Below are positions 24,505 through 44,310 of a DNA stretch of 64,000 nt, piece by piece. This DNA comes from Pseudomonadota bacterium. GTDB taxonomy: Bacteria > Pseudomonadota > Alphaproteobacteria > Caulobacterales > Hyphomonadaceae. The notes beneath the pieces were generated by a model. The model ran no database searches. It was not told the origin of the DNA and saw only the letters and a list, made by a program, of their open reading frames with translations. The number at the start of each line of letters is the position of its first letter. The stretch's first letter is position 1. Made by a program: the position numbers and the translations under genes. The DNA lies in assembly GCA_039191105.1 (NCBI GenBank), contig JBCCXW010000001.1:23353-87352 (forward strand), in the 5' to 3' direction.

Positions 24505-24510
24505 TGCGCC

Positions 24511-25818: not shown

Positions 25819-26508
25819 ATGTTCAAACGATCTTCCACTTCCTATGGGCCAAGCCCGTTTCCTGAAACGCCCTACCAGAAGGCAGGTCAGATCTGGGATG
25901 AGCGTATCGGGTCGGCCCGCGTGCAGGCAAAGAACTGGCGGTTAATGGCGCTTGGCTGCCTCGGGCTTTGCTTTGTCACCTCCGGCGCGCTGGTGTGGCG
26001 GTCAATGCAATCGACCGTCACGCCCTATTTGGTCGAAGTCGATGAAACTGGCGCCGCTCGCGCCGTCGGACCTGCAACGGAACGCTACACGCCAAGCGAC
26101 GCGCAGATCGCCCATCACCTCGCAGGCTTCATAGAGAATGTGCGTGGATTATCCGTAGACCCGGTTGTGGTGCGCGAGAGTTGGCTGCGCGCCTACGACT
26201 TTGTCACCGACCGCGCATCAACAACCCTTAACGAATACGCCCAGGAGAGCGACCCTTTCGCCGATGTGGGTCGCAAGTCCCGCACCGTCGATGTGGTCAG
26301 CGTCGTGCGCGTTTCCGATGACAGTTTTCAGGCGCGCTGGATCGAGAAGGCCTATGAGAACGGCGCGTTGATCGGCGCGCAGCGCTTCACCGGCAATTTC
26401 ACCCTCATCACCCAGCCACCAACGGATGCGGAGACCCTCCGCGCCAACCCCCTTGGCCTTTATGTCCATTCCCTCAACTGGGGACAGGACCTCGTTACAG
26501 GAGAATGA
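25819..26508 (+). CDS. trbF: TrbF/VirB8
   Basis: TPYQKAGQIWDERIGSARVQAKNWR; NPLGLYV. Confidence 0.93.
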   Translation: MFKRSSTSYGPSPFPETPYQKAGQIWDERIGSARVQAKNWRLMALGCLGLCFVTSGALVWRSMQSTVTPYLVEVDETGAARAVGPATERYTPSDAQIAHHLAGFIENVRGLSVDPVVVRESWLRAYDFVTDRASTTLNEYAQESDPFADVGRKSRTVDVVSVVRVSDDSFQARWIEKAYENGALIGAQRFTGNFTLITQPPTDAETLRANPLGLYVHSLNWGQDLVTGE

Positions 26509-27506
26509 TCCCCATGCCGCGTTTTTTGATTTCCGCTTCCGCTTTGATGCTCATATCAGCCTGCGCAACGACGACTGAATTCGAACCGATTGATCCGGGT
26601 GCATTTGTAGCGGCCACCGCCGTCAACGACGATTATGACCTGCCGATTGAGATCGTTGAGACGGCCGTTGCGCTGCCCCTGCCGGGACAGATGAAAGCGA
26701 TTGAGTCGGCGCCGCCAGCGCCGCGCCTGTCACCAACACAGGCGATCAGGGAAGGCAGAGAGGGTGCGCTCATTGAGCCTTCGGTCGATGGCTATGTGAA
26801 CGCGATCCAGATTTATCCCTATACCGAAGGGGCGCTTTATCGACTGTATGCGAGCCCTGGCCAGGTTTCCGACATTGCGCTCCAACCAGGCGAAGAACTC
26901 GTTTCTGTTTCCGCGGGCGACACGGTGCGCTGGGTTGTCGGCGACACGAGTTCCGGATCCGGCGCAACGTCGCGCGCCCATGTTCTGGTCAAACCGATCA
27001 GTTCAGGCATCCGCACCAATCTGATGATCGCGACCAATCGGCGAACCTATCACCTGGAACTGGAAAGCGTATCCGGCGGCTATATGGCGGCCCTCTCATG
27101 GCGTTATCCAGCTGATGAACTCGCTGGGCTCACGGCGAGGAATGATCGCGCCATCGCTCGCGAAACCGGGTCTATCGAGCGTGGACTGACCCTTGAAGGT
27201 CTCAATTTCGACTATCGGATGAGCGGTGACAATCCTGCATGGAAGCCAGTCCGCGTCTTTGATGACGGGCGTCAGGTGTTCATCCAGATGCCAGACTCGA
27301 TCATCGCGACTGATCTACCGCCGCTCTTCGTCGTCGGCGACGATGGCGATGCCGAGCTCGTCAACTATCGCATCCGCGGCAATTATTATGTCGTCGACAG
27401 ACTGTTCCGAGCCGCCGAGCTTCGCCTTGGTGAACGGAATCAAACAGTCGTGCGGATCACACGCGTCCAACGCCGCACGGGCCTTGCAGCGATATTCGGG
27501 AGTTGA
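26505..27506 (+). CDS. trbG: TrbG/VirB9
   Basis: YPYTEGALYRLYASPGQVSDIALQPGE; VRVFDDGRQVFI. Confidence 0.93.
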   Translation: MIPMPRFLISASALMLISACATTTEFEPIDPGAFVAATAVNDDYDLPIEIVETAVALPLPGQMKAIESAPPAPRLSPTQAIREGREGALIEPSVDGYVNAIQIYPYTEGALYRLYASPGQVSDIALQPGEELVSVSAGDTVRWVVGDTSSGSGATSRAHVLVKPISSGIRTNLMIATNRRTYHLELESVSGGYMAALSWRYPADELAGLTARNDRAIARETGSIERGLTLEGLNFDYRMSGDNPAWKPVRVFDDGRQVFIQMPDSIIATDLPPLFVVGDDGDAELVNYRIRGNYYVVDRLFRAAELRLGERNQTVVRITRVQRRTGLAAIFGS

Positions 27507-27513
27507 TCGGCAG

Positions 27514-28767
27514 ATGACTGAACCGATTCCCTTCGACGAACATGCAGAGCGTTTGAAAATCCGCTCCAATCCGAAACCCGTCACACGGATCAATCGAAAG
27601 GTGTTGATGGTGGGCGCAGGTCTTGGTGTCTTAGGTCTCTTTGCGGCCATGAGCATCGCTTTGAAACCGCCCACAGCCGTCGCTCCGAATGAGCGCCGTG
27701 AACTCTACAACGTAACGAACAAGCGGACCCCCGATGGCCTTTCCACATTGCCAGCAAGCTACAGCGATGTTCGGCCTGATCCCATACCTGTACTCGGACC
27801 ACCGCTCGCGGGCGATCTGGGGGCCACAGTTCTACGGGCAGAGCGCGATCTCGGTATTGAGCCGGAATATGTACGCACCTTCGAAGATGACTTCAGGCCC
27901 AACCCGGTCGATGAAGCCGAACGCGCCCGGCGCATGCGTGAAGCTGCCCTCCAGGAAGAAGCCGCCCGTGCGCCTGTCTTTTTTCAGCTTCAATCGCAAA
28001 CAGGCAGCGAACGTGCAGCAGGCGCGACACCGACCTATCGCGACCCTGCACTCGATCTCGGGTCAGAACTTCTCGCACTCGCCTCGCTGCCGCCGGGCAC
28101 GCCGTCGGCTTTCGGGCAGGCAACTGACCCCAATCTTCAGTCGCGAAAGCTGGCTTTTGCAGGCGAAGGCGGGGGGGCGGATATCTACAATCCACACCAG
28201 ATCGAAGATCCTGCCTCGCCCTATCAGGTCATGGCGGGAACACTGATCCCGGCAAGCCTCGTCACTGGCATCAATAGTGATTTACCCGGAACGATTATCG
28301 CGCAAGTGACGCAGACCGTGTACGATACGGTCTCCGGGCGGTACGTTCTGATCCCGCAAGGCTCGCGTCTGATCGGGCGCTATCAGTCGGAAGTTTCCTT
28401 CGGTCAGGACCGAACGCTCGTGACTTGGGACCGGGTCATTTTTCCCGATGGGTCTTCTATTCAGATTTCGGCTCCCGGCGCTGATGCGCACGGCTATTCG
28501 GGTCTCTCTGATCGCACCGATCATCATTGGGATCGCGTCTTCGTGGCAGCAGGTCTTGCGACCATCTTAGGGATCGGCGCCGAACTTGGCAGTGATGGCG
28601 ACGGCGATATCGAACGCGCGATCAGGCGCGGCACGTCCGACACCGTGAATCAGGCCGGCCAACGCGTCGTCGATCGATACTTAGGCATTCAGCCGACCAT
28701 CCGTGTGCGTCCCGGCTGGCCGGTCCGCGTCATTGTCACCCGCGACCTTATTCTTCGTCCCCATTGA
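27514..28767 (+). CDS. trbI: TrbI/VirB10
   Basis: AGTLIPASLVTGINSDLPG; LIPQGSRLIG; PTIRVRPG. Confidence 0.93.
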   Translation: MTEPIPFDEHAERLKIRSNPKPVTRINRKVLMVGAGLGVLGLFAAMSIALKPPTAVAPNERRELYNVTNKRTPDGLSTLPASYSDVRPDPIPVLGPPLAGDLGATVLRAERDLGIEPEYVRTFEDDFRPNPVDEAERARRMREAALQEEAARAPVFFQLQSQTGSERAAGATPTYRDPALDLGSELLALASLPPGTPSAFGQATDPNLQSRKLAFAGEGGGADIYNPHQIEDPASPYQVMAGTLIPASLVTGINSDLPGTIIAQVTQTVYDTVSGRYVLIPQGSRLIGRYQSEVSFGQDRTLVTWDRVIFPDGSSIQISAPGADAHGYSGLSDRTDHHWDRVFVAAGLATILGIGAELGSDGDGDIERAIRRGTSDTVNQAGQRVVDRYLGIQPTIRVRPGWPVRVIVTRDLILRPH

Positions 28768-28780: not shown

Positions 28781-29017
28781 ATGTCCCTTCGTCTCCAAAA
28801 ACTCCCCGATCGAACCCCGGTGCGCATGAACCTAGCCGTCGATCCTGACCTTGCAGCAGCGCTTGCCGATTATGCTGAAATCTATCGTCAAACCTACGGA
28901 GCAGACGAAAAGCCGGAAGCACTGATCCCGGCCATGCTGGAGAGTTTTCTCAGGCAAGACGCCGGGTTCAAACGGGCGCGCAAAGCCCTTCACGCCAACG
29001 CCAGACAAGGAGAATGA
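28781..29017 (+). CDS. DUF2274-family protein
   Basis: LRLQKLPDRTPVR...LADYAEIY...LIPAMLESFL..D.GF; typical after trbI. Confidence 0.85.
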   Translation: MSLRLQKLPDRTPVRMNLAVDPDLAAALADYAEIYRQTYGADEKPEALIPAMLESFLRQDAGFKRARKALHANARQGE

Positions 29018-29341: not shown

Positions 29342-31933
29342 CTACGCCAAATGTACTTGATTGCCGCCAAGATCGCGGAATGCTCGCTGGCGGCACGATA
29401 GTACCAGTATCTGTAAATCTCCAGCCTGCCTGTGTAGAGCGTCGAACATTAACTCGATCCGATCATCATCTGTGAACACGAGCGCGTCATCGAGAATAAT
29501 TGGCGCAATTTGTCCGCGCTTCGCCAGCATTCTCGCGAAAGCGAGGCGAACCAGCAGAGAAATCTGTTCTTTGGTCCCGCCTGAGAGGATATCTATTGGT
29601 TCTTCTTGGCCATTCCGAATTAGGGACGATGGCAATAGTGTTTGGTCACCCCAGGACAGCTCTGCATCCGGCCAAAGCAGCTGAAGGAGCGGCTTTAGTT
29701 CATTGGCGACGGGTTCGAAATATCGGTCGCGGGCCTCACTGCGGGCGTCTTCCAAGACTGATTGCAGCTTTTGTAGAACGGCGACTTCCTTCTCGATCCC
29801 TGCAAGCTTAGCCTCCGCTAGCTCAAGTTGCTGTTTCGTTTCCGCCAGACGTTCCTCAACAGCCTCTTCCGCGGTTCGAGAGATATTCGCTTCTAACGCC
29901 GCGAGCGCTGGCTTTAGGCGGGCAATCTCTGACCTAGCGGCATCCTCGACAGATTGAACGCGTTTTAGCGTTGCTTCGGCAGCGCGAACATCCGGCGCGA
30001 GTTTCGCTTTTTCTGAATAAAGCGCTTCGGCGGCCTCAAGCGCAGTTACGGCGCGACTTAGCTCATCCTCAAGCCGCGCTTCGTCTGTATCGCCATGCCG
30101 CGCCAAAGCGGTTATCGCTCTTGCTTCACGCGCTTGTGCGGCCTCAAGCGCTGCATCAAGCTTTGACGATTCTGAGCGCGCGTCAGAGAAACGTTCTGTC
30201 TCGACCGTGCGGGCCGTGTCTGCCGTTAATCGATCTTCTTCCGCTTTAGCAAAGCGTGTTTCCGCATCTTCAAGGGCCGGGAAGTCTGTTTCAGCGGCAT
30301 CGAGTTGGGGAATAGCGGTGAGTATTTTGCGTAGATCTTCTATACCGTTTGGAGCAAGGGACTCAAAGATCGCATTAGTCTCAAGTCGGCTTTGTTCTGC
30401 AGTGTCGCGCTGAATAGCAGCATCGCGCGCATCGTCTATGGTCGTGCAGTCAAAACGTTTGAGTTTTTCAATCAGCGCGTTTTTCGCGGTCTCAACAGAA
30501 TCGTCTTTATGATCACCGACTCCAGGGTGGATACTTAATGTTCCGATTTGTTCGATGACCAGATCAGTATCCCCCCTTATCGACACTGGCATGTCGCCCG
30601 GGAGTTCCTCATCGTTCTGTTTGATCTTGCCTTGCCCACCCTCGGCATACCTAATGAGGAGATTTGCCGATTTGCTATCGTGGATCGCCTGCACAGTCTT
30701 TAGAGCCCCCGCGAGTTCTTCCAGCTCGCGCATGGATCGGGGATCAGGACCTTGTGCAGCCTCAGCGGCAGCTGTTTCCATGCTGACGCGAGCAGTCTCC
30801 GCCTTTTCGATGCGTTCCTTTAGCTCTTTGCGCCTTTCGGCACCATCAAGCGCTGCCTGGCGACGCAGAGAAACACGTAGCGAATCTTGCGCGGATTGGT
30901 ACTCTTCTAGCGCCTCATTAAACTCCCGCTGCGCTTTTGTGTGAGAGTCCTCGGCAGCTTTCAGGGACAGCTGGGCGGCCTCGGCGTTTTCTGCGACGGC
31001 CTGACGCGCTTCAACGGATGCGTCACGTTCCTTTAAGTCTCTACGCAAACCCTCGAGACGAGATTTAACATTTGTGACCGCAAGCCGCGCCGCATCAACT
31101 TTGCGTGCTTCTGATTCGACGGCGTCGGCATGACGCTGTGCGGCTTGCAGTTCTGCTGTGGCGTCCGCCACACGTTTCTTCCGCACAGCGCTCGCCTCGG
31201 GGCTCTCGAGTTCTTCAAGCTCACGACGCTTTCGCTTGCGTTCATCCAATTGGTCGCGAAGCTGAGCAACCTGACCGGCCAATTCGGTGTGTTGCAAACG
31301 GAGTGATTCAACATGTTGTTCCGCGTCTTTCCAGGGTCCGCCAGTTTTTGGTCGACCGCCAGCGGTCGCAAAATTGCTTAGCTCTTCTTTGCAGCGTGAC
31401 AGCGCCAGATCCATTCGTCTTCCACCTGTCATCGCTTCAACTTCTCCGGTGACAGATGAAAGCAGATCACGCCTGGCCTCAAGTGCGGCTTCTTTTTCTT
31501 TCTTTGATCCTTCCGATAAGGTGGTCAGGCCTTGCCGGACCCACAGCAGCCCCGATGGTCCGCCGTCTCCTCCACCCAAAAGTCGGCCAATCCATGACTC
31601 GGCTTCATCAGCTTGAGCAATCAATCGTCCGTCCTGCTCTATCTTGGCGGCAGGCTTTGACATCCATCTTTTTGTTATGACGAAAAGACCGGCGTCCGTC
31701 TCGACTTCGACGACGACTTCTGGCGCACCGCCAGCATGCGGGCGAAGCGCTTTAACGTCTTTATCGCTCGAGGTGTGAGCTTTGAAGAAGACCGCTTGTA
31801 GTGCATCGAACAGAGTCGATTTTCCGAACTCATTCGGCTCGCACAAAACGTTCAATCCGTCGCTCAATCCTTCTATACGAGCCGTATCCGTGAAACGCCG
31901 AACATTGGTGAGCGTGATAGATCGTATCCGCAT
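29342..31933 (-). CDS. SbcC/Rad50/YhaN-like ABC ATPase with long coiled coil
   Basis: EPNEFGKST Walker A; LSGGTKEQ signature; ILDDALV Walker B; no CxxC hook seen. Confidence 0.88.
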   Translation of the reverse strand: MRIRSITLTNVRRFTDTARIEGLSDGLNVLCEPNEFGKSTLFDALQAVFFKAHTSSDKDVKALRPHAGGAPEVVVEVETDAGLFVITKRWMSKPAAKIEQDGRLIAQADEAESWIGRLLGGGDGGPSGLLWVRQGLTTLSEGSKKEKEAALEARRDLLSSVTGEVEAMTGGRRMDLALSRCKEELSNFATAGGRPKTGGPWKDAEQHVESLRLQHTELAGQVAQLRDQLDERKRKRRELEELESPEASAVRKKRVADATAELQAAQRHADAVESEARKVDAARLAVTNVKSRLEGLRRDLKERDASVEARQAVAENAEAAQLSLKAAEDSHTKAQREFNEALEEYQSAQDSLRVSLRRQAALDGAERRKELKERIEKAETARVSMETAAAEAAQGPDPRSMRELEELAGALKTVQAIHDSKSANLLIRYAEGGQGKIKQNDEELPGDMPVSIRGDTDLVIEQIGTLSIHPGVGDHKDDSVETAKNALIEKLKRFDCTTIDDARDAAIQRDTAEQSRLETNAIFESLAPNGIEDLRKILTAIPQLDAAETDFPALEDAETRFAKAEEDRLTADTARTVETERFSDARSESSKLDAALEAAQAREARAITALARHGDTDEARLEDELSRAVTALEAAEALYSEKAKLAPDVRAAEATLKRVQSVEDAARSEIARLKPALAALEANISRTAEEAVEERLAETKQQLELAEAKLAGIEKEVAVLQKLQSVLEDARSEARDRYFEPVANELKPLLQLLWPDAELSWGDQTLLPSSLIRNGQEEPIDILSGGTKEQISLLVRLAFARMLAKRGQIAPIILDDALVFTDDDRIELMFDALHRQAGDLQILVLSCRQRAFRDLGGNQVHLA

Positions 31934-33060
31934 TATTCCGCCTCCTTAATATATGCGTAGAGGCGCGACAGTGCTCCGGCCGAAACAGACCGCTCATCGG
32001 TCGAGAGTGTTTCAGATTCTGCGTCATCTTTTAGTCGGTTTGCAGCCAGCCGAAGGGCACCTGCTTTGTCGATCTCGTCGATGTCAGCTTCATCATACGT
32101 CGTGCCAAGATCATCCAAGTTGAGATCCATGAACCCGAAATCCGCCCCCAGACGCTCCGACGCCTGGCGCAGCTCCGCCTGTTGCGCGAGACTGGACCAT
32201 CCTGTTGCTCTGACACGCATCAAGGCATTTCGCTGGTTATCTTCAGGAAGAATACCTTCGAATGCTTCGACTGCGTCGGCCTCCGGCAAAAGCGGGAGTT
32301 CGGTCTTGGCCCATAGGAACTCTCCGGTTTCGATTTCATCGATCTCGGGTTCCGCCCCAGGGGCTACGATTGATACGGCGAGGCAAACACCTCGCTTGCC
32401 ATGTTTGAAGCGATCTTGCTCTGGGCTACCGCTATAATGTGTTCGGGGGCTGACAGCGACGCGGCCGTGCCAATCGCCGAGCGCTAGATAATCGAGCCCT
32501 GCGCTTCGATCTCTGTCAGGCGGAATGTGACCACCACTGTCGGTGAAATCGACGACGCCCGCATGAGCGAGGCCAATTCGTATATCGCCATCGCCGGTCT
32601 GCATTGATGCGAGCTCAGCGGTTGGATCTCGTCCCGATGAACGAAAGGCGACAGGGCACGGCAATAGCTGAACACCCGCGCTTAACTCGATCGGTGCGTT
32701 ATCCGCAATAAGCTGGACGTTTTGTGGGGCGTCTCGCAAAACCTTATCCCAAAGAGGTTCTGCATCTCTGAGGTTGTCATGGTTGCCCGGTATGATCCAC
32801 CAGTAGACATCGGTGCAATCTGCCATAGCCGTCAGGGCTTGTTGAACGATCGACGCCGAAGGCGTCGCCGTGTCGAATGTATCTCCAGCGAGCAGAATGT
32901 GGTTCGCGCCTCGCTCACGCGCGACTTTCGCCAAACGCGATAACGAGGCGTGTCGTGCCTCCATTAGCCGTCCACGAATGTTTCCGTCTGGCGGTTGGGG
33001 AATATTAGAGAACCGACGTCCTAAATGTAGATCAGATGTATGGATAAATCGAAAGCTCAT
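31933..33060 (-). CDS. SbcD/Mre11/YhaO-like metallophosphoesterase nuclease
   Basis: HTSDLHLG, AGDTFD, PGNHD, LAHAG, LALGDWHG; stop shares a base with the ATPase start. Confidence 0.9.
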   Translation of the reverse strand: MSFRFIHTSDLHLGRRFSNIPQPPDGNIRGRLMEARHASLSRLAKVARERGANHILLAGDTFDTATPSASIVQQALTAMADCTDVYWWIIPGNHDNLRDAEPLWDKVLRDAPQNVQLIADNAPIELSAGVQLLPCPVAFRSSGRDPTAELASMQTGDGDIRIGLAHAGVVDFTDSGGHIPPDRDRSAGLDYLALGDWHGRVAVSPRTHYSGSPEQDRFKHGKRGVCLAVSIVAPGAEPEIDEIETGEFLWAKTELPLLPEADAVEAFEGILPEDNQRNALMRVRATGWSSLAQQAELRQASERLGADFGFMDLNLDDLGTTYDEADIDEIDKAGALRLAANRLKDDAESETLSTDERSVSAGALSRLYAYIKEAE

Positions 33061-33194
33061 CCTCGCCCCCAATAAAGTTGAATTTGAATAAAAGAAACTT
33101 CAAAACACTATAGACGGTTTTGTGCTTTTGCGGTGAACGGCGTTTGGCACAAGTCGTAAAAGGGTGCGGATGACTTGGATTGGGAAGTATGGAT

Positions 33195-33563
33195 TCAACT
33201 TTCATCTTCGACCTCTTGTGGCCGACCGCCTTTACACCAATCAACACGACCTTCTTTCACCCAGAAATGACATCCGCACGAATTTTGCTGATGCACAGAC
33301 GGCGTTATGGTCGGACGCCGCCACCAATCGAGAGATACACGCCAGTACGGGCGCCTATTTGGGTTGAGCGATAGCTCAATTCGTTGACCGCACCCTCCGG
33401 GACATGGAAAAGCGGCCCATTTGGATACGCCGTCGGGACGAACCAGAATGAACTCATTGAGCCCACCTGTTTCTCGAGCCGGCAACTGCGGATGTATTGA
33501 AGCAACAAGATCACCTTTAAGAAGACCGAGCCTTTTGAGGAATCGAAAGAACGCTGTCTTCAT
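33195..33563 (-). CDS. DUF6527-like Cys/His metal-binding protein
   Basis: WAAFPCPGGCG...PTITPSVH...CGCHFWVKEGRVDWC; ATG 33563 is 1 nt after the E1 stop. Confidence 0.75.
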   Translation of the reverse strand: MKTAFFRFLKRLGLLKGDLVASIHPQLPARETGGLNEFILVRPDGVSKWAAFPCPGGCGQRIELSLNPNRRPYWRVSLDWWRRPTITPSVHQQNSCGCHFWVKEGRVDWCKGGRPQEVEDES

Positions 33564-33564
33564 T

Positions 33565-34965
33565 TCAGAGCACCATGTTAAGTAGGGGTTCAATATCGCC
33601 GCGCCCCAGCGTCTCAGGTGTCTCACAGGCTGGACAACCATGCATTCGTTCGATGAGGGGGAAGCGATCGTCGCACGCATGGAATCGGCGGATGCGGGTT
33701 GGCCGCATACCGTCGTGACCGTGGAACCCTGTGATCGCGGCAAGAAGTTCGTTTACCGCCATGCACGCCGCTTCCGTCGTGAAAGTCACAACCGCTGGCG
33801 ATGGATCACCTTCTCCGAGAACATATGCCTCCTCTTTCAATAAGGCATAGCTATCCGGGTCTCGACGTTTCAGCGCCTCTTCACTGGCCCGCCTCGGGTC
33901 AATATGGCCTCCGCAAATAAGGCAAGGATGTCCGTCGACAAGTGTCGATGTACGAGCAAAAAGATCGAAGCTGCCGGTTTCACGCTTCTGCATTGCCAAG
34001 CCAACGTCTATCACGGGGATTGAGTAGAACCGGCTGAAACGATTGAGCACCAAGCGTCCGGCGTGATCATCCGTGCACGAAAATACAATATCGCACGCCT
34101 TTAGCGCCTCGACACTGCCTGGGTCGCCGACGAATGCGTCAATTGTGACGAGGCGCATACCAAGATTGGTTTCTGCCACAGTCCGACTGTGAACGTCAGA
34201 CTTACGGGCGCGGTTTTCCGCATCAATACGTCGAGCGCCATGAAGACGATTGAGGTTTGAGTGCTCGACTATGTCTTTTTCAAGAAGAAGCGCATCGCAA
34301 ACGCCAAGCCGCATTAGTAAAGCGAGTACCGCGCTTCCCGTGGCTCCGCCGCCGGCGATGCCGATACGCAGCGAGGCGATAAGTTCGTTCGCAGCATCAC
34401 CGAACAAGCGAGCCTGCCGGTCTAAATAGTCTATGTTGGACTGCGATTTATCCGTATTTGACAGGCTGACTCGGGCGCCTACGTGGAAAATGCGATCAAT
34501 GGACTCGTACGTGTTTGCACTAGTCCAAACCCGCGCCAATATCTGCTCATCGCCGGTAATCACAATACTGATGAATCCTCGGCATCCTTTTAGGAATGCC
34601 GTGCGCGCGAGCTCGGCTTCGTTCTTGTCATCTTGCGCAGAAAAAGCCGCAGGACCGTTTGGGTGAGTATGGACAATTCCGGGGACGAAGCCTTCGTCAC
34701 TCGCCCGACCAAAGAGGCGCATAAGACTATCTGTCCCCCAGGTGATGTGGGCGGGAGAAGCGTCGACCAGTTCATGCTCTTTGATCGGAACTACAACATG
34801 ACTCATCAAGCGTCGGCGCGGCATGTTTGACCAAGGATCACAGCTGATTTCAGCGGACCCGAAAAGCATCGTCGCCGCCGCCTCATTCCCGCCGTCCGCG
34901 GCGAGGAGCGACTTGATCGCTTCGCCGTGCACGGCTTGTAGTATGATATCAACGGTTGCCATCAT
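33565..34965 (-). CDS. JAB/MPN+ peptidase fused to ThiF/E1-like adenylase
   Basis: JAB: E27 and HTHPNGPAAFSAQD (HxH-x7-S-x2-D). E1: GGGATGS, DIVEHSNLNRL, SCTDDHAGR, CLIC...CPAC zinc site. Confidence 0.9.
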   Translation of the reverse strand: MMATVDIILQAVHGEAIKSLLAADGGNEAAATMLFGSAEISCDPWSNMPRRRLMSHVVVPIKEHELVDASPAHITWGTDSLMRLFGRASDEGFVPGIVHTHPNGPAAFSAQDDKNEAELARTAFLKGCRGFISIVITGDEQILARVWTSANTYESIDRIFHVGARVSLSNTDKSQSNIDYLDRQARLFGDAANELIASLRIGIAGGGATGSAVLALLMRLGVCDALLLEKDIVEHSNLNRLHGARRIDAENRARKSDVHSRTVAETNLGMRLVTIDAFVGDPGSVEALKACDIVFSCTDDHAGRLVLNRFSRFYSIPVIDVGLAMQKRETGSFDLFARTSTLVDGHPCLICGGHIDPRRASEEALKRRDPDSYALLKEEAYVLGEGDPSPAVVTFTTEAACMAVNELLAAITGFHGHDGMRPTRIRRFHACDDRFPLIERMHGCPACETPETLGRGDIEPLLNMVL

Positions 34966-35891
34966 GCGCCTGCCGAAGCCAGTGCGACCTGAACACGCGC
35001 GATCATCGTTTGGAGCCCATCAATCCCTGGGCGCCAAGCCTGACAATGCCGCGACCAGCGTTGCCATGACCGCCCTGCGAAATTGTGGGCGACATTAGCC
35101 GCACGCGGTTCGCGTCCGCTGACCGACAGGCGCAGCCAGGGTGAGGCATAGAACATATCTGGAGCGATATCTGGGTAGCCTGCGGGCAGAATGATCAGGA
35201 TGTCTGCCGTTTCATGATCATATTTTCCCGCGGGCAGCGGGAATGCCTTCAGAATGACCCCTGGAGTGGTTCCGTGTTCGACAATATCGAATGTCAGGTT
35301 ACGGCTCTCCAGATACTGAAGATCGGAGGACGGGATAAGCTCCCGTCCCTCCGTTGTTTGATCAATGATTGAGATGAAACGCTCTACGCCGGGCTTATCC
35401 AAGTCGATAAGATCGCAATCATCGATTTTCTGGTCGTGCCCGCCCGGCACGTCGAGCCACAACGCATAGTTGGCTGCAAGCGAGGCCAGTTTTTTCAAAA
35501 CGAAGCCTGTGATGAAGCGCCGCGGCCATTCGAGGTCACGGTCGTCAATCTTGAACAAGTATTTCCGATCAGTTCGGGCGACAAGAATGCGCTCTGCTCC
35601 GCGACCCCGAAGATCATAAGGCTCATCGAGACGAATATCTTCGAAGTCCCCGTTGGGCAGGATCGCGATCGCGACGTACTCATGAACAGGCGCTCCGCCC
35701 GTCACTTCAATCAGTTGACGACCGAGTGGAAGCGGATCGTCGAGAACGAATGGTGAGAAGCTGAGGGTCTCATTTGCGATTTGCACACGAAAGCGCCGTC
35801 TTGGCTTCAACGGCCGACCAGCGTGAACCGCTTCAGCGAGATCGTCGATATCTGGCTCATCGCCGTTTTGGGGGGAATTAAGGGAGTCCAT
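34962..35891 (-). CDS. Two multi-ubiquitin-like domains fused to a prokaryotic E2 (family E-like)
   Basis: Repeated D.LDL...G.ERF/I Ubl motifs; internal TTEG (aa 179-182); E2: LPAGYPDIAPDMFY, WQRWSRH, WRPGIDGL. Confidence 0.85.
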   Translation of the reverse strand: MDSLNSPQNGDEPDIDDLAEAVHAGRPLKPRRRFRVQIANETLSFSPFVLDDPLPLGRQLIEVTGGAPVHEYVAIAILPNGDFEDIRLDEPYDLRGRGAERILVARTDRKYLFKIDDRDLEWPRRFITGFVLKKLASLAANYALWLDVPGGHDQKIDDCDLIDLDKPGVERFISIIDQTTEGRELIPSSDLQYLESRNLTFDIVEHGTTPGVILKAFPLPAGKYDHETADILIILPAGYPDIAPDMFYASPWLRLSVSGREPRAANVAHNFAGRSWQRWSRHCQAWRPGIDGLQTMIARVQVALASAGA

Positions 35892-35907
35892 TTGATTTTC
35901 CTTCTTG

Positions 35908-35937
35908 CTGAGGGAAGCCTCATGCTTCCGCTCTCAG
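35908..35937. repeat. Bulged hairpin between helicase and Ubl-E2 genes
   Basis: CTGAG/GGAAGC-CTCAT-GCTTCC/(GCT)/CTCAG. Confidence 0.5.
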
Positions 35938-35972
35938 AAGGGCAATCGCGTCGGTTTCGAAGAACCGGTAAG

Positions 35973-38900
35973 CTAGTTGAGATTTTTTTTCGTCAGGACC
36001 CCGGTTGGTGCCTCACCGCAGATAAAAAAATGAGGACAGCGTGGACATGTGCGGTCTGGTTTGGGCGGAAAGCGACCGTCGGCAATGGCTTTTCCGGCTT
36101 CGCCGATACGCTCGCGCCGGGTCTGCAGCTTCTTGTCGGTCAGATTAACATCTGACACGTCTGCATCAGCCAAGAAGACAAACTGAACATCGGCATGGTG
36201 CCCAACAGCCAGTTGATAAGCCGCTGCATCAAGACTGTCCGTCGCTTTTGAAGTCTTTCTGCCGGTCCATATGCGCCGCACGACGGTTCTGCCATCTGAC
36301 GTCCGAACTTTTTCATGCGGCGTAACAACGATTCTTGCAACGCCGAGATCAATTTCGAGGTCCGCCGCCTCTATGGTCTCGTCACCATCTTTTAAAGCCA
36401 GCAGCACATCGAACAGGCGTGTCGCCGCAGACTTGTAAAACGACGCATTTGGGTCATCCACAGGCCCCCGACTTTGCCAAAATTTGTCGAAGTCGAGAGC
36501 GGTATCAGGCTCGGCCAGAAGTGCGTCGACCGCACCCTGCACGGCCCCGTGCATCTTCATGAAAGGTGTTTCAGTTCGTCGGCCCCCGAGTCGAAGGACA
36601 TGTGTGTACAGAAAGCGGCGGGGACACTTCTCGTAAAGAGCCAGTTGAGACGGCGTAACAGCAAGTTTTTCGTCGAACCGAAGGTCGATGTTTAGCCCGC
36701 TCAGGTCGACGTCATCAGGCGCAGCGATGGGTGGTTGCCTAGTAACGCTTGATCCGAGACGCTCGATAAAAGGGGAGGGTTTTTGATTTCGCCCTCCTTT
36801 CTGTTTGGTTGGCGCATATAGCAGAAGATCATCTTCGGCGCGTGATAACGCCACGAAGAAAAGACATTCTTGTTCTTCTTCGTGTCCTGACTTCAGCGCA
36901 TCGAGGCCGGAGCCCTGGACCCCTTCGATCATTCCATCTGGCGGAGGTAGAGCATTCATTTGATTAGCAGACTGAGGGATGGATGCGGCAGTTAACGAAG
37001 GAACGTGGACGGCTTTGAACTCGAGTCCCTTGCTTTTGTGGATCGTAAGTAGGTTTACCGCATCGAGCGCTTGCGCCGCGTCGGGTAGATCACGCAAATC
37101 GCGTTCATCTGATAGGATGACAAGACGACGGATATGATCAAGCAGGTTACTGGTTGGATACCCTCGACTATCCAAGCGGACAGTACGGAGGAAATTCTGC
37201 AACTGCCATAACGCTATAGCTGGCAATGGCGCTCCATTTAGCAATTCACCGGCATATTCAGCGGCCAACCGCGTATGGTCCAGATAAAGTGATGCAAAGG
37301 CTCGCCATGGTGTCGTACCGGGTTCGAACCCGTTATATGCGCCGCTGAGGTTCCGAAAGGTGTCACGACCCGCTTCGGAAATCTGCCCCTCGCTTGGGAG
37401 AAGGGATCTCCACTGCAAAGGCTCCAGGGATGAAGCTTCGGAGAGTACTTTGGCTGCGGCTGCGACATCGTCGATAGAAATTGGGAAAGCCGAACTCGTT
37501 GCTATTTTGGCTATTCCCATTGCTCTCGGATCAACAAGCAGCGATAGAAACGAAAGCGCTTCTTTTACTTCTGCACGGTCGAATAAAGGGCCAAGGAATA
37601 GGACGGGAATTCCGCGCGCATCGAGATTAGCGGCAATCTCAGCTAATCGATCATTGGCCTTGCATAGAACCGCTTGATCACGAAACGCGCAGCCACTTTC
37701 CCGTTTTTCGCGGATTCTTGCGGCGAGTTCGTTTAGCTCATCATTCTTTGTACCGACCTCTACATAGGAAGGCGTGACACCGGAAGCACCACGCTCGGCG
37801 ATCGCTTCGAAACCGACTTCCGCAGCTCGCATGTCGCACTTTGCGAAACCAGCGAAGGCGTCGCAAATTTCCTGGGTTGAACGATAATTCGTGGACAGGT
37901 TCTTTATGACGCCGCCGGAAAAATCCGTGTCTCCAAAACGTTCCATATTGATCGAAGAAGCTCCGCGGAAGCGATAGATGGATTGTTTCGCATCGCCTAC
38001 GACCCAGAGCCCGTCTCCGCTCGGTTTGAGCGCGGTCAACAGCCTAACGCTGGCGCGATTGACGTCCTGATACTCGTCGACAAGCACATGTTCGAAACGC
38101 GCTTGAAGCTGCTCGCGTACGATTTTGTCACTCTCTAACAGCGCAACAGCTCGCGCCACCAAGTCACCAAAGTCGAGTATGCCATGTTCAGCTTTTAGCG
38201 CTTCGTATGCGGAGTAGACTTTTGAGATCTCCGTGCATTTTTCGCCAAGCAAACGGGCATCGTCATTCCCGGCGGTGTCGAGCATCGTTTTCGCGAGCGC
38301 AGCGTATTGCTCATGATCAACCACCTCGTCTTTGGCGCGAGAAATCGCCGCCAATAGGTCCCGCAGTTTGTCAGTTGGATCGCGAAGCTCGCGGAAATGC
38401 TCTAGTTCAAGGCGAACATATTCGTTTTCGAGGAGCGCTACTGCTTCCGCAGTGTCTACAAGCCTGGGATCTTCTGGCAGTCCGGCGCGGTCGCTAAATC
38501 GCCTCAAGAGATCGAGACCAAACGAATGAAACGTGCCGAGGGTGATCTCGCCAGCGGCTTCGGGCCATATAGAGAGGGCACGCTCGCTAAGTTCGCCAGC
38601 CGCTTTGTTCGAGAAAGTCAAAACAAGAATTGAACTGGGGTCGACGCCTTGGCTTTTTAGAACGCTCAGCCTGCCGATGAGCGTTTGTGTTTTTCCAGTG
38701 CCGGGCCCCGCGCGCAGAAGAAGAGGGCTTCCATTATGGTTCGCCGCATCTGCCTGTTCAGAGTTGAGCGGCTTTGGAGGGCGCTTTTCAGTGGGCGTAA
38801 TTTTTAAAGCTGGAAGCCAAAGAGCATCGAATAGTTGAACGGCAACCATGTCGTAAGGGGCACCCAAACACTCAGCAATCTCCTTTGCGGTTCGTCCGTC

Positions 38901-39356
38901 TTCAAGGTGCCAGCTCCGCGCAAGAGTGCGTGGAAACAAGAACTCACGCGCGAAGAGGTCCATTTGAACCTCCTGTCGGGCTTTCTGGCTGTAGTCTACG
39001 ACACGCTCCGCGCCAGACGCGTCGGTCCCATCGCTCGATCGTGCAGGGTCGATGTCTGTGGACGGCGCGAACATCACATGCCCGCCAAATTCAGCATGTC
39101 CTATTTCATGCGCAACGAAGAACGCGTTGATAAAGCTATCGCTGGTGTCTTCGTGGCGGATCGTGCCGGCAGGATCGTAGAGCGCCCGCCCGCCATCCAG
39201 CATTTCATGGCCCGCTGGATAGATGCGAACTTCTATGTCTCGACGCCGCGCTTCTTTAAGGACGAACGCATACGGATCGGTTGGATCGCCGCCCGCCGCA
39301 ACAATCTCCGCGTGCAGCTCGGCGGCGCGTTGGCGGATAAGCTCAATTTGAGCCAT
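35973..39356 (-). CDS. ImmA/IrrE metallopeptidase + UvrD/PcrA helicase + degenerate PD-(D/E)XK (Fe-S) domain fusion
   Basis: AHEIGH...[14 protein letters not shown]; [55 protein letters not shown]; CPRRF...[10 protein letters not shown]. Confidence 0.92.
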
Positions 39357-39906
39357 CAGATTGCGCGAGGCGACTTAAGGCGGCCTCTTCTTCCGATGTT
39401 AAGGCGAGTCCTTCGATGAACGCAGCGTAATCCATTTGCTCCGCCCGAGCGGGCTTCCCATCAGCTTTGAACGCTAAAGCGGGACCAGTGGCATCACCGC
39501 TGGATAAATAACGAACAAAGTCATGAAGACGCACACCGATCATTCGCGAAAGGCCCGAAAGCACTGGCTCCGGCGTCGATCCAAAACGAATACGTCGGTC
39601 GCGAAAGCCTGCCAGAAAGTCTCGCGGCAAACCAATCTGTTTGGCTAATTCGCGAATGCCTTCGTTTGAAAATGCCGCTTGCAATTTTCCTACAGCAACC
39701 ATCTGGGGCTGCGCTGATTTCGTCTCGAAGCGAACCTCCTCCGCACCCGCGCGCGCTTCCGCTAAAGTGATTTCATGGAATAAATCGGTGAGCTCAATGG
39801 CGAGATCGGGATATCGGTCAATGTATGTTTTGAGGAGGGCGTGAGAGATTTCTTCCTCCATCGTGAACTCCTCAAAAACGTCTTCTGGATCAAGGTTCGG
39901 GCTCAT
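39343..39906 (-). CDS. Hypothetical protein with central XRE-like HTH (candidate anti-sigma/repressor)
   Basis: [16 protein letters not shown]-terminus; [23 protein letters not shown]-like segment; overlaps both neighbours. Confidence 0.55.
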
Positions 39907-40715
39907 TTCTTCACCTCGATTCCAAGCTCTTCGCGAATTGTTTTGAAAGCGCTTTTGCGGCGGTTTCTGACCGTCTTGTCGGTGCAGCCGAGGATTTTAG
40001 AGATCGACGGATCGCCAGGAGCTTTAGCTTGGTCTTGAATTCCGGCTTCCTGCATATCGAGTATTCTCCTTTCGTTCTCCGGGAGTTTGTCAATCGCAGC
40101 ACGGAGCTGAAACCGGTAAGTCACTGTTTCTTCCGGCGTCATATTAGATGGGCTGTAGCGATCAAGACTCTCTTCAACCTCCGACGGGACGTCGCCCGTT
40201 TCATCGTACTCTAGCGGCGTGAGCGGTTTGTTCTTGCCATAGACTTTGCGCCCCGCGCTTGCCCTGAGCTTGGCAACAGCGCGATCGAACACAACCTCAA
40301 AGATATCAAGCCGCTCTTCATAGCTTTGTCGGTCTTGAAGAATAAGCATGGTGAAGCGCTCTAGGACGTTTTCTTGAAGGTCGGCTAAGGTGCCAATTTC
40401 CCCGATGCCGCCTGCAATCGTAACGTCTTTTTGCGGACACACGCGCCTTATTCGATCTTCGAGAATTTCGAATAGCAGGCCAAATCCCACTTCTGAATTG
40501 TGCTGCCGCGTCAGTCTTAAACGATGGACCAAGAGTTCCGACGGCACGTAGTCAGGTGACTTTCGATTGTGGTTTTTCGCTCTGTCGGCCAATTCATTGA
40601 TTGGTAACGCGGCGAATTCTTGGAGCAGCTTTTCGGTCCTAGGCAGCCGTTTGTACGGCTCTCCAGTTTTTCTGACTTTTCGGAGTGGCGGTGGTTCGTA
40701 GGTCGTGTCAGCCAT
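39903..40715 (-). CDS. Divergent sigma-70/ECF-like factor
   Basis: Region-4-like IDKLPENERRIL...ISKILGCTDKTVRNRRKSAFKTIR; alternative start 40760. Confidence 0.7.
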   Translation of the reverse strand: MADTTYEPPPLRKVRKTGEPYKRLPRTEKLLQEFAALPINELADRAKNHNRKSPDYVPSELLVHRLRLTRQHNSEVGFGLLFEILEDRIRRVCPQKDVTIAGGIGEIGTLADLQENVLERFTMLILQDRQSYEERLDIFEVVFDRAVAKLRASAGRKVYGKNKPLTPLEYDETGDVPSEVEESLDRYSPSNMTPEETVTYRFQLRAAIDKLPENERRILDMQEAGIQDQAKAPGDPSISKILGCTDKTVRNRRKSAFKTIREELGIEVKK

Positions 40716-40958
40716 GTTCTGCCCATCAGTATGAACATCAAGAATTGAAGGGCGTAACACTCCGATGTTTGTATTTGGACGGCATTACACGCGGAGTGAG
40801 TTTAGTTCGATTCTCGATCGACACGCGCGATTTATTTCAGAGTACTTCGTCTTTCGATCGTTGTCTAAATAGCAGGCGCTGAAGTTGATTGCCCTCCGTC
40901 CAACCCGAAAAATACGACTACGCGGCAATCTAAAAACGGCTCCGTGAGGTCTCAATGA

Positions 40959-41187: not shown

Positions 41188-44100
41188 TTATATCACGCGC
41201 CTATGCGGAGCTTCGGCCAATGCATGTTGAGTGTCCGGATTTGGCGCGAACCAGCGGTGCAAAGCTGGCAAGACCAGAAGCGTAAGCACAGTCGATGACA
41301 CTAGCCCGCCGATAACAACAGTCGCGAGCGGTCTTTGCACTTCAGCGCCGACGCCGGTTGCAAACAATAAGGGCGCGAGTCCCAGCGCTGTAGTCATTGC
41401 CGTCATAAGCACCGGCCGTGCCCGCAATCCTGCCGCTTCAATAGCAAGTTCGTCGCGGTCGCGGCCTTCGCGCGCAAAACCATCCATAAAACTCACCAGC
41501 ACCATCCCGTTGCCGAGTGCGATGCCGAACAGGGCGATGAAACCGACGGTCGCAGGCACGGACACCGGCTGACCGGTCAGCCAGAGCGCCAGCGCGCCGC
41601 CGGTGAGCGCCAGCGGGATGTTAAGCAGGATCAGGATTGCAGATTTCAAGCGCCCGAACGCCAAAAGCAGCACAAGCAGAACGATGCCGAGTGTGATCGG
41701 AATGACGACGGCGAACCGGGCATTGGCCTGCTGCTGGAGTTCAAACTGTCCGCCCCACTCGACTCTGTATCCAGCTGGAAGATCAAGCGCAGCGTCGGTC
41801 GCTGCCTGAGCGTCGGCGACAAAGGAGCCGATGTCTCGTCCGCGGACATTCAGTTGAACGGTGATAAACCGCTCGCCATTCTCTCGCGTGATCTGCCGGG
41901 GACCAATCACCTCACGGATGTTGGCGACCGAAGATAGCGGCACCTGCGCCCCGCTTTCGCTTTTCAAAATCAGACGACCAATCGTTTCGGCGCTGTCGCG
42001 GCGGTCTTCTTCAAAACGGACAATGACCGGGAACTGGCGTACGCCCTCAAACAACGATCCGGCTTCCGCGCCGCCGACGGCCGCGCGCAGCGTATCCAGC
42101 GCGTCCTCGACCGTGAGGCCGTACCGTCCAAGTGCGGTCCGGTCGACGGAAACGACCAGTTGCGGTGCACCGGTGATTTGATCCGCCTGCACATCACTCG
42201 CGCCCGAGACGCCTTCGAGAATCTGTTGCAGGTCCTGCGAGCCTTCCAGAAGAATATCGGCGTCAGGCCCGAAGATTTTTACGGCGAGCTGGGCCTTAGT
42301 CCCGGTGAGCAGTTCGTCGACAGACATGGCAATCGGCTGACCGATATTTACCCGTATGCCGGGGAAGCTTTCGAGGTCTTGGGATATTGCGGCGCGCAGC
42401 GCATCTGGGGACAGCCCGGATCGCCACTCGGAACGCGGTTTCAGCGCGACAAAGGCTTCGATGCTGTTGACGGGATCAGCATGAGCGCCGACCTCGCCGC
42501 GCCCGATCCGGCTGACAACCGACTCGATTTCCGGAAAGCGGTCGAGCAAGCGGCGTTCCACTCGCGTCGATGTCTCCCGCCCCTCTGTCAGCGAGATCGA
42601 TGGCGCCATAGTGACCCGCAGCAGAATATCGCCTTCCTCAAGGGCGGGCGTGAACTCCGAACCGAGACGGGAACCGGCGAGACCGCCCACCAGAAGCAAG
42701 CCGATGGCGAGCGCCACGGCGGCAAGCCGCACACGGATGAAAAAGGCTGCGAGCGGCTTTACAAGGTCGGCTATCCTACCGCCGTCAGACGTCTGCTGTT
42801 TCGGAGGCTTTATCAGTCCATACGCCATCGCGGGCGCAATCAGGGCAGCGTAAATCAGTGAACCCGTCATGGCGAGCGCGGCGGCAGCCGCCAGCGGTCG
42901 GAACGTCTTGCCTTCCACGCCCTGCAGTGAAAACAGCGGCAGGAAGACGATGATGACAACAGCAACCGCGGCGATCAGCGGTGCGATCACTTCAGCGGTC
43001 GCGCGCGCGATCACATCGCGGTCAGTTTCATCGGGCCGCCGCTCGCGGAATCGCCGGTCGGCATTTTCAGCGATGACGATCGCACCGTCTACCATCATGC
43101 CAATGGCGATCGCGACGCCGCCGAGCGACATCAAATTGGCGCTAATCCCCAGCATGCCCATGGCGATGAAGGCGAAGCCGACCGAAAAAGGGATCGACAT
43201 GACGACGACGAGACTGGGCCGCCAGCCGCCGAGGAACAGGAACACAATCATCGCGACCAGCAAGGCGCCCTGCCAGAGCGCTGTCGTGACGGTGGATGCT
43301 GCACGCTGAACCAGCGTGCCCTGATCATAATAGGGCACGGCGCGGACGCCATCCGGCAATGCCGCGTTGATTTCGTCAAACCGGGCATGGGTGCGCTCAA
43401 TGACATCGGAGGTATTGGTGCCATAGAGTTTGAGCACCAGTCCCGCGACTGTCTCGCCTTCGCCATTGGCTGTGGCAAGCCCCTGACGCGCGCCGCCGCC
43501 AATGGCGACGGTTCCAAGATCACTGACGCGCACGGTCCGCCCGTCTACGGCTTTAACCGGGGTCTCAGCGAGATCGGCGATGGAACGCGCAAGCCCAACC
43601 CCGCGCACGGTATATTGCTCAGCGCCAACTTCGATGAACTGGGCGCCGGTTGTGCGGTTAGCGCTCTCCAACGCGCCGATCACATCCGCAACCTGCAGGT
43701 CATAGGCGATCAGAAGATCAGGATTGAGGCGGACCTGATACTGCTTTTCGAAACCGCCCAAGGCGAGAACCTCAGTGACGCCCTCGACCGATTGCAGCGG
43801 ATACTTGATCATCCAGTCAGCGATCTCGCGCAATTCCGTGAGATCATAATCGCCGGTCTCATCGACCAGGCGGAAATACATGATGATGCCGAGCCCGGTT
43901 GAAATCGGTCCCATTTTCGGGGCGCCGAAGCCATCCGGAATGCCTTCGGCCGCTTCCGGCAGGCGCTCGCCGACAACCTGGCGAGCGAAATAGACGTCCG
44001 TGCCGTCCTTAAAATAGACGTTCACAATGGATAGGCCGAAATTGGAGACCGAACGAACCTCTTCGACATTCGGCAGGCCGGACATGGCGGTCTCGACCGG

Positions 44101-44298: not shown

Positions 44299-44310
44299 AT
44301 GTATCGCCTC

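Follow-up and report, generated by a model that had tools for sequence, protein, structure and literature searches.

The DNA analysed here is a 64,000-nucleotide (nt) stretch (below, the window) of contig JBCCXW010000001.1 (positions 23,353 to 87,352) from an alphaproteobacterium of the family Hyphomonadaceae. At positions 29342-40760, it carries eight co-oriented minus-strand open reading frames (ORFs), all verified in the ORF list of the window, and the features located below lie on that strand unless marked otherwise. In order, they encode a sigma-like protein (p285), a small partner protein (p187), a peptidase-helicase fusion, the three proteins of a Bub operon (BubAB, BubCD, and BubE), which conjugates a ubiquitin-like protein (Ubl), and an SbcD-like/SbcC-like pair. 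An initial annotation had read the whole cluster as a candidate new system, in which a sigma factor, a helix-turn-helix (HTH) protein, and a protease-helicase sensor would switch on Ubl conjugation and a nuclease. The gene arrangement that it described is borne out by the ORF coordinates, in which neighbouring genes overlap by 4, 14, and 4 nt, abut in one case, and share a single base in another, while the two gaps measure 81 and 134 nt. The "new system," however, should be narrowed to a new regulatory and sensor module of the known Bub family together with a recurrent SbcCD accessory, since the three genes upstream of Bub (the trio) are apparently an undescribed control module.

The core three genes are, by their sequence, a canonical and already published Type I Bub (6E.1) operon, because Pfam domains, catalytic residues, and the published definition agree. 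That definition comprises a Ubl-E2 fusion, a JAB-E1 fusion, and a DUF6527 protein with a Cys-less catalytic set (Ye et al., 10.1101/2024.11.21.623953; Gong et al., 10.1101/2024.11.21.623966), and Ubl conjugation via oxyester intermediates has been shown for the Citrobacter and Escherichia coli homologues (Ye et al., 10.1101/2024.11.21.623953). In the window, BubAB (34962..35891) joins two Ubl beta-grasp domains to an E2-like domain (Pfam Multi_ubiq twice, 4e-28; Prok-E2_E, 3e-44). Its Ubl part ends in TTEG, with G182 kept in 80 orthologues, and the E2 motif W-S280-R-H282 (Ser-x-His, no Cys) is conserved at at least 85% in the same set. BubCD (33565..34965) combines a JAB/JAMM peptidase with a ThiF-type E1 adenylation domain (Pfam ThiF, 5e-27; Prok-JAB, 2e-10), in which E28, H99-x-H101, S109, D112, and the crossover-loop Y381 are invariant across 15 sequences. 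BubE (33195..33563; 122 amino acids [aa]) belongs to the Zn-ribbon serine protease family DUF6527/PF20137 (Pfam, 1.2e-23; family function from Ye et al., 10.1101/2024.11.21.623953), and its Cys residues and S88/H99 pair are conserved in 80 orthologues; its start is ATG 33563, a longer ORF from TTG 33743 overlapping BubCD and having no homologue support. Since the core matches the published Type I Bub both by domains and by residues, this conjugation core is not a new system. The PADLOC models gave generic domain matches only (GajB-like, LmuB-like, and E1-E2), without a system call, and NCBIfam had no specific family for the cluster proteins.

Upstream of this core, the first gene of the cluster encodes p285 (39903..40715), a 270-aa protein when read from ATG 40715. 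This start is the most likely one, as the orthologues all begin a few residues ahead of a conserved PLRK motif, and the ORF is extendable to GTG 40760. A profile of 27 orthologues matched FliA (1.3e-5), region 4 of sigma-E (1.4e-4), and sigma-H (1.5e-4) in the PDB, along with a weak Pfam match to Sigma70_r4 and an NCBIfam sigma70-ECF match under the cut-off (7e-5). The AlphaFold2 (AF2) model, with a predicted local distance difference test (pLDDT) score of 85, retrieved nearly only sigma factors among its top 20 Foldseek matches (probability 0.99, E 0.01). These alignments run over ~200 columns of full-length extracytoplasmic function (ECF) sigma factors with low template modeling (TM) scores, and the sequence match to sigma region 2 of RpoE is weak (E 0.018). 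On the sequence evidence, p285 is a diverged sigma-70-family (ECF/FliA-like) protein, and a sigma region 2 is plausible from the model.

The second gene (39343..39906) encodes p187, an all-helical 187-aa protein without any Pfam, NCBIfam, or PADLOC family. Alignment of 28 orthologues delineates a conserved N-terminal helical domain, an XRE-HTH-like middle part, a flexible linker with the conserved sequence (A/S)FK(S/A)DxKP at residues 145-152, and a C-terminal helical hairpin; the pLDDT of its AF2 model is 88 and falls to 64 at the linker. The Foldseek matches to XRE-family proteins, ClgR, and DdrO are weak (E >= 0.6). Thus, whereas Pfam backs the domain calls of the initial annotation elsewhere in the cluster, its "HTH" for this protein comes down to a weak fold resemblance. 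We regard p187 as a candidate anti-sigma factor and/or protease substrate.

The third gene (35973..39356) encodes a 1127-aa triple fusion (Pfam Peptidase_M78, UvrD, and PDDEXK_1), composed of an M78/IrrE-type zinc peptidase (residues ~37-175), a superfamily 1A (SF1A) helicase of the UvrD/PcrA type (~197-860), and a PD-(D/E)XK-fold domain (~900-1113). The Pfam matches are 8.6e-9 for Peptidase_M78 and 5e-60 for UvrD, and PDB matches include PcrA (2e-52), UvrD, and AdnB; many full-length homologues of the fusion exist. Across 64 orthologues, H83-E84-x-x-H87, the Walker A motif, DEYQD, and the remaining SF1A motifs are invariant, as are C911, C1104, C1107, and C1113, which form a four-Cys iron-sulfur (Fe-S) signature of the AddB/Cas4 type. 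An equally invariant Arg replaces the acidic residue of motif III (R1028-x-[R/K]1030-T-G), an assignment that is provisional because it comes from by-eye alignment to the canonical motif. Moreover, the C-terminal domain alone found no nuclease match in the PDB by sequence. This domain is therefore probably a DNA-binding Fe-S module, not an active nuclease, and the nuclease-like label of the initial annotation is in this respect overstated, the acidic residue of the canonical (D/E)xK being missing.

The conservation of these genes was assessed by a scan with a BubCD alignment, taking one genome per species, which yielded 80 loci at 45-63% identity, 71 of them with enough upstream DNA to be evaluated. 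A sigma-like gene, an M78 domain, and a UvrD helicase lie upstream on the same strand in 61 of these 71 loci. Three more are cassette variants whose sigma-like gene is too diverged for detection (L054, L066, and L079; in L066 and L079, the places of sigma and p187 are taken by diverged ORFs, and no sigma gene was found in L054), and in L061 the trio is inverted. L047, L053, and L084 are deletion remnants of the cassette, and L075, L085, and L086 are Bub loci without the trio. The six-gene order from sigma gene to bubE thus occurs in 61 strict and 4 variant cases, far beyond chance, so that the claim of a conserved unit holds for this cassette; the full eight-gene order was found again in L015, L023, and L090. 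Wherever the cassette occurs, the sigma gene comes first, and the p187 gene always follows, overlapping both the sigma gene and the helicase gene behind it. The helicase and BubCD co-vary in their identity to the window (r = 0.95), and this co-divergence argues that the six genes travel as a unit. Their hosts span about eight phyla, among them Alpha-, Beta-, and Gammaproteobacteria, Acidobacteriota, Verrucomicrobiota, Planctomycetota, and Nitrospirota; a remnant came from Hydrogenedentes and one further locus from an actinobacterial metagenome-assembled genome (MAG). In Halomonas and Phaeobacter inhibens, for example, unannotated genes for ~265-aa and ~182-aa proteins precede the fusion, which is followed by BubAB, BubCD, and BubE. 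In a scan of metagenomes seeded with the M78-domain alignment, all contigs of sufficient length had the three trio genes side by side. Downstream of these genes, most such contigs encode a Type II Bub (three-domain Ubl, DUF6791-ThiF E2-E1 fusion, and BubE), and thus the trio serves both Bub types.

The deletion remnants are of interest in themselves. Only remnants of the helicase are left in L053 (Caballeronia) and L084 (Hydrogenophaga), which still hold the sigma gene, an ORF of about the size of p187, and the Bub genes, while in L047 (a Hydrogenedentes MAG) a fragment of an M78 remnant and UvrD is fused in frame to an E2 fragment.

Bub operons often adjoin DNA-damage-responsive regulators, first CapW and CapH+CapP and later CapK+CapS, all of which serve many systems besides Bub (Bub literature). 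The regulator columns of the published Bub tables of 2024 and 2026 are empty for P. inhibens, a trio carrier, and the Bub papers examined mention no helicase, nuclease, or SbcC, although the helicase linkage may be mentioned in the published Ye et al. (PMC12885553) or in Burroughs et al. 2011. Literature searches for a connection of Bub with a helicase or SbcC likewise returned nothing. The sister Bub loci without the trio hold a standalone pair of HTH_19 and M78 proteins (CapH/CapP-like) in the same upstream position. In L076 (Paracoccus yibinensis), a divergent set upstream of the Bub operon (2107-4634, minus strand) encodes a 249-aa protein without assigned family, a 204-aa Sigma70_r2 protein, a short ORF, and an unfused M78 peptidase of 256 aa, and may be an unfused counterpart of the same sigma and protease logic. 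The trio thus occupies the regulator slot, since sister loci have HTH and M78 or sigma70_r2 and M78 genes there, and its proposed position as regulator of the conjugation operon, directly upstream of it, is upheld. At the level of sequence, comparison of p187, p285, and the M78 domain with the CapH-like, sigma, and CapP-like proteins of the sister loci by hhalign and BLASTP gave no meaningful similarity. The hhalign probability of p187 against the CapH-like protein of L075 was 0.2%, and similarity between the M78 domain of the window and the L076 peptidase was confined to the HExxH region.

The link between the trio and Bub is also written in the DNA. A bipartite motif, T[AT]CCGG-N15-GCGATT[GA], recurs at two fixed places, within the sigma gene (site A) and past the helicase stop (site B). 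Site A (40089..40118), a pattern match that we consider a candidate internal sigma-dependent promoter, reads TACCGG-N15-GCGATTGAC, lies ~190 nt upstream of the p187 start, and is translated as Y-R-F-Q-L-R-A-A-I-D; the bipartite pattern itself spans 40092-40116. Site B (35941..35971), likewise a pattern match and a candidate sigma-dependent promoter of bubAB-bubCD-bubE, reads TTACCGG-N15-GCGATTGCC and begins 5 nt past the helicase stop, in the 81-nt gap that is conserved across phyla; Type II loci mostly have the variant TTACCGGT-N14/15-CCGATTG. Counted with the exact pattern CCGG-N15-GCGAT over 2.75 Mb of scanned sequence, site A occurs, at a constant place in the coding sequence, in 55 genome and 66 metagenome loci, and site B in 38 genome and 13 metagenome loci, the genome ones at +7..+11 from the helicase stop. 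Elsewhere in the scanned loci, the pattern had 47 matches, about 1 per 59 kb. At site A, the codons are TAC in 28/28 cases (0.55 as background in the same genes), CGG in 43/46 (0.24), GCG in 46/46 (0.31), and ATT in 45/48 (0.33), and the codons between the two motif halves vary freely. Such frozen synonymous codons reflect selection on the DNA of site A itself.

In the 3.78-Mb genome from which the window comes, TWCCGG-N15-GCGATTR occurs three times, two of the occurrences being sites A and B. The third match (contig C77, 6100-6127, minus strand) is antisense in a plus-strand 340-aa ORF and was dismissed as a chance match, ~0.5 being expected. Bub loci of the CapH/CapP type do not contain the motif and have sigma-70-like promoters with a palindrome in its place (TTGACT..TAGCTA palindrome..TATAAT). 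Because the motif is asymmetric, has a fixed spacing, and is exclusively linked to the sigma-like gene, an ECF-type promoter is its best reading on sequence grounds. Being tied to the trio, the motif fits the "switch-on" logic that the initial annotation had proposed.

Past site B, the bubAB leader (35892..35943) is predicted by folding and by covariation of its arms to form a nested hairpin. In this fold, the Shine-Dalgarno (SD) sequence of bubAB, AGAAGG (35905-35900), is base-paired to the 5' arm CCTTCT (35941-35936) around an inner hairpin GGAAGC/GCTTCC. The minimum free energy of the window leader is -21.2 kcal/mol (z -3.1). Folded one by one, 99 leaders gave a median z of -3.3, with z < -2 in 79% of them. 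The arms differ by clade (CCTTCTG, CCTTGTG, CCCTTAG, CTCCAGA, GACTTAG, and others), each fitting its own partner, and the arm duplex is worth -10.7 kcal/mol within a locus against -7.1 kcal/mol across loci (z -13, with none of 10,000 permutations close). Depending on the locus, the SD sequence paired in this way is that of bubAB or of bubA. RNAalifold on a MAFFT alignment of 30 leaders returned no pairs, the stems being misaligned. Since pairing is conserved and sequence is not, these downstream repeats point to an RNA structure rather than to a protein operator.

The last two genes of the cluster form an accessory pair. The SbcD/Mre11-like metallophosphoesterase (31933..33072; 379 aa, probable start ATG 33060; Pfam Metallophos, 3e-9) has the motifs DxH, GD, GNHD, and GDWH and matches TIGR00619 (sbcd) under the cut-off (2.5e-15). 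The SbcC/Rad50-like SMC-type ATPase (29342..31933; 863 aa; Pfam SMC_N, AAA_23, and SbcC_Walker_B) has no CxxC zinc hook in its entire sequence. It is 51-56% identical to its counterparts in SbcCD-like pairs of Rhodobacteraceae, including a chromosomal pair in Sulfitobacter (51%), and in L091 such a pair lies among chromosomal housekeeping genes. Closer relatives, at 52-93% identity, directly follow Bub operons on conjugative elements, together with the full trio in L090, L015, and L023 and with CapH/CapP-type regulators in L087 and L089. Other SbcCD flavours follow Bub in L021, L025, L048, L033, L036, and L040 and Type II Bub in L118 and L141, with Pfam compositions such as Metallophos and AAA_27 (L021 and L048) or SbcD_C and AAA_23 (L036). 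In 7/67 genome and 4/29 metagenome loci (about 10-14%, or roughly one in eight), the 2 kb that follow BubE contain an SbcD-like gene. The SbcCD-like pair is thus a recurrent optional accessory, tied to Bub rather than to the trio. As these flavours are several and non-orthologous, and as they also follow CapH/CapP-type Bub, the pair does not belong to the core of the system, where it had initially been placed. A further member of the family was seen in Tranquillimonas rosea (L088, 6685-19532), co-oriented with a WYL regulator, an RNase_H_2-SF1 helicase (1104 aa), a 222-aa gene, an McrB-like AAA_5 ATPase, and McrC; this cluster, whose SbcC-like protein is 56% identical to that of the window, gives the impression of a distinct defence-type operon centred on that SbcCD family.

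The cluster lies between conjugation genes for TrbE/VirB4, TrbL, VirB8, CagX/TrbG, and TrbI on one flank (21219-28767, plus strand) and a CzcCBA-type resistance-nodulation-division (RND) metal efflux operon on the other (41188-46910, minus strand), and its G+C content is a little below that of the adjoining DNA. From these flanks and the lower G+C content, we take the locus to be cargo on an integrative and conjugative element (ICE). Cassettes were found on plasmids (L009 and L026) and on ICEs (the window, L087, L089, and L090), and the placement of Bub and SbcCD next to trbI was seen again in L087 and L089. A terminator-like hairpin with a T-run (28911..28933), found only by consensus scan and lying ~410 nt past the SbcC-like stop, marks a possible end of the transcription unit. 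In the same scan, no intergenic gap of the cluster held a terminator-like site, and the other minus-strand ones fell within coding sequence. A sigma-70-like promoter at 40955-40927 and the terminator scan were both set aside, as consensus matches were no commoner than shuffled expectation, or rarer.

The neighbourhoods of the cassette are typical of defence islands. An AbiEi/AbiEii pair lies directly upstream in 15 alphaproteobacterial genome loci (e.g., L007, 2619-4249, minus strand) and at a Type II metagenome locus (L131, 7491-8570). In 13 beta/gammaproteobacterial loci (e.g., L051, 724-4106, plus strand), an AAA ATPase (388 aa, C-terminal HTH) and a 739-aa S8 subtilase immediately precede the sigma gene on the same strand and may be a linked module or a neighbouring defence pair. 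HipA genes were also seen near related cassettes. About 0.5 kb downstream of the trio-linked Type II Bub of L131, a 1034-aa fusion of a Peptidase_C14 (caspase-like) domain to DEAD/Helicase_C is encoded (16340-19444, plus strand), so that this neighbourhood holds a further protease-helicase fusion.

Altogether, we propose, with moderate confidence and on the strength of sequence comparisons, that a Type I Bub operon carried on a conjugative element is under the control of a private sigma switch, for which a DNA-sensing protease-helicase acts as the gate. In this model, p285 would be the private initiation factor for the motif, with TACCGG as the -35 and CGATTG as the -10 element. In resting cells, p187 would hold the sigma factor or the promoter off. 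The fusion would detect abnormal DNA, such as single-stranded DNA (ssDNA), ends, or damage, through its ATP-driven UvrD motor and its catalytically degenerate Fe-S DNA-binding domain, and this detection would activate its own M78 domain to cut p187, probably in the (A/S)FK(S/A)DxKP linker. The freed sigma factor would then fire site B, resulting in the expression of BubAB, BubCD, BubE and, where present, SbcCD, and would fire site A to yield more p187 and sensor, as a reset or an amplifier. Meanwhile, on transcripts that read through from the upstream genes, the leader hairpin would mask the ribosome-binding site and so prevent translation of bubAB, and transcripts starting a few bases past the -10 element would lack the anti-SD arm. 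The cleavage of p187, the sensing of ssDNA, and the anti-sigma role are pure inference on our part. More tentatively still, and with somewhat less than even confidence, we put forward the full combination of a sigma factor with a promoter motif in its own coding sequence that is repeated before Bub, a protease gate fused to a helicase, and an anti-SD leader that sorts the transcripts. Measured against the initial annotation, the conserved unit, the regulator slot, and the motif speak for its overall reading, while the new core and the core role of SbcCD had to be given up, and the nuclease-like domain of the fusion is unlikely to be active.

Several points weigh against this model. By sequence, p285 is significant in region 4 only, region 2 resting on a Foldseek E value of 0.01; p187 matches no HTH, CapH, or anti-sigma family significantly; and the motif may be an operator instead of a promoter and, in contrast to classic autoregulated ECF operons, was not detected ahead of the sigma gene. 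For a mere sensor, a motor with complete conservation of its ATPase would be costly. The trio is nearly exclusive to Bub, whereas the Cap regulators are promiscuous, which would also fit the helicase as effector machinery. No phage protection by Bub has been reported so far (Bub literature).

The alternative that survives best, which we nevertheless consider unlikely, takes the helicase fusion as a working partner or target of Bub, that is, a DNA translocase recruited to or modified by Ubl, with the M78 domain processing a pathway component and the sigma-like protein and p187 acting merely as transcription factors of the operon. The near restriction of the trio to Bub, when known Bub regulators serve many systems, would agree with such a partnership, as would the invariance of all ATPase/helicase motifs, the co-divergence of the helicase with BubCD (r = 0.95), and the recurrence of SbcCD-like nucleases beside Bub, which points to DNA as the arena. 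However, the nuclease active site is degenerate, sister loci put a standalone CapP-like peptidase with an HTH or sigma protein at the position of the M78 domain, and Bub operons are biochemically functional without any helicase (Ye et al., 10.1101/2024.11.21.623953). Moreover, L053 and L084 have lost the helicase and yet retain the sigma gene, the p187 ORF, and the Bub genes, with site B still present in L053, whereas the leader of L084 starts past the motif.

Rather improbable, in our view, is a scheme in which the motif and the inverted repeats are operators for p187 as a CapH-like repressor, transcription being left to a housekeeping sigma factor and p285 serving as a region-4-type activator or co-repressor. 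It draws on the XRE-like helical core of p187, a weak fold match that includes DdrO, an IrrE substrate, on the palindrome ACCGGT held by the -35-like element in many loci, and on the restriction of the significant p285 sequence matches to region 4. Yet the motif lacks symmetry and has a constant 15-nt spacing, as a promoter would, the downstream repeats keep pairing and not sequence, which favours RNA structure, and the p285 alignments in Foldseek cover ~200 residues of full-length sigma factors. Furthermore, site B shows no evident sigma-70-like -35/-10 elements, while CapH/P-type loci have a clear TTGACT...TATAAT. Finally, the possibility that the eight genes are independent defence or repair modules (helicase module, Bub, and SbcCD) brought together only through mobile-element clustering is very improbable: the locus is indeed carried by an ICE, with trbI on one side and czcCBA on the other, AbiE, AAA+/subtilase, HipA, and McrBC genes adjoin related loci, and SbcCD-like pairs related to that of the window also stand alone on chromosomes, but fixed order and strand, overlaps, co-divergence, and a private cis-motif over ~8 phyla refute it for the six-gene cassette, and SbcD-like genes directly after BubE in 7/67 and 4/29 loci partly exclude it for SbcCD.

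If the private sigma switch that we propose is correct, Bub and its recurrent SbcCD partner would be tied to the monitoring of DNA that is abnormal or arrives from outside, as with conjugative elements. The recurrence of an SbcCD-like partner and the position on an ICE point to DNA ends or ssDNA, besides phage, as a possible stimulus. A control module present in ~8 phyla and with both Bub types offers a concrete handle on the trigger, the targets, and the role of Bub, as it joins a sigma-like factor and a helicase-coupled protease with a candidate promoter, in which 13 bases are specified, and with a candidate substrate whose linker motif is conserved. Forcing this switch on would induce the native Bub operon and let its targets be sought. 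Independently of Bub, a promoter-like motif in coding sequence with frozen codons makes a clean example of dual coding.

Compared with known systems, the window has the same three genes, the same fusions, and the same Cys-less catalytic residues as Type I Bub, as well as its mobile-element location; to this identical core, it adds a Ubl of two beta-grasp domains and a different set of upstream regulators. The accessory pair resembles SbcCD/Mre11-Rad50 in its metallophosphoesterase in tandem with an SMC-like ATPase (Walker A, signature, Walker B, and a long coiled coil) and differs in its position after Bub on ICEs, its lack of a CxxC hook, and scores below the curated family cut-offs. As in AddA, AdnB, or RecB combined with AddB/Cas4, a PD-(D/E)XK fold with 1+3 Cys (C...CxxCx5C) comes after an SF1A motor of the UvrD type; the fusion departs from AddA/AdnB/RecB by the invariant Arg in place of the (D/E)xK acid, by its N-terminal M78 peptidase, and by being a single subunit.

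Closer to the proposed control logic, the HTH repressor CapH and the M78/IrrE-type peptidase CapP, which reportedly respond to DNA damage and are listed beside many Bub and CBASS operons, likewise place an HExxH M78 peptidase and a small helical partner directly upstream of an effector operon, with the expected sequence of DNA signal, proteolysis, and expression. In contrast to that pair, p187 has no detectable similarity to CapH-like HTH proteins, a sigma-like gene is added, and the genes are co-oriented and overlapping. The sister peptidases stand alone at ~250-320 aa (L075, L076, L087, and L089), whereas that of the window is the N-terminal domain of the 1127-aa fusion, and the trio-type loci have the bipartite ECF-like motif instead of a sigma-70 promoter with a palindromic operator. 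The M78 peptidases of IrrE/DdrO in Deinococcus and of ImmA/ImmR on ICEBs1 cleave an XRE repressor after DNA damage, and the parallel extends to the weak fold matches of p187, which include DdrO, and to the mobile element that carries ImmA/ImmR. Neither pair includes a helicase fusion or a sigma factor, and the regulon under their control is a different one.

ECF sigma/anti-sigma pairs such as sigma-E/RseA and sigma-W/RsiW are freed by regulated proteolysis. With these, the trio shares a sigma gene followed by an overlapping gene for a small partner and a candidate protease trigger, and the motif, with its GC-rich -35 and its CG-containing -10 about 16 nt apart, resembles ECF promoters. The sigma protein of the window nevertheless has ~270 aa, with a long atypical N-terminal half, and p187 is cytoplasmic, without the zinc-binding anti-sigma (ZAS) or transmembrane features of ECF anti-sigma factors, its candidate protease being fused to a helicase. 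Moreover, unlike in ECF operons, where the promoter lies upstream of the sigma gene, the motif of the window lies within the sigma gene and ahead of the effector genes.

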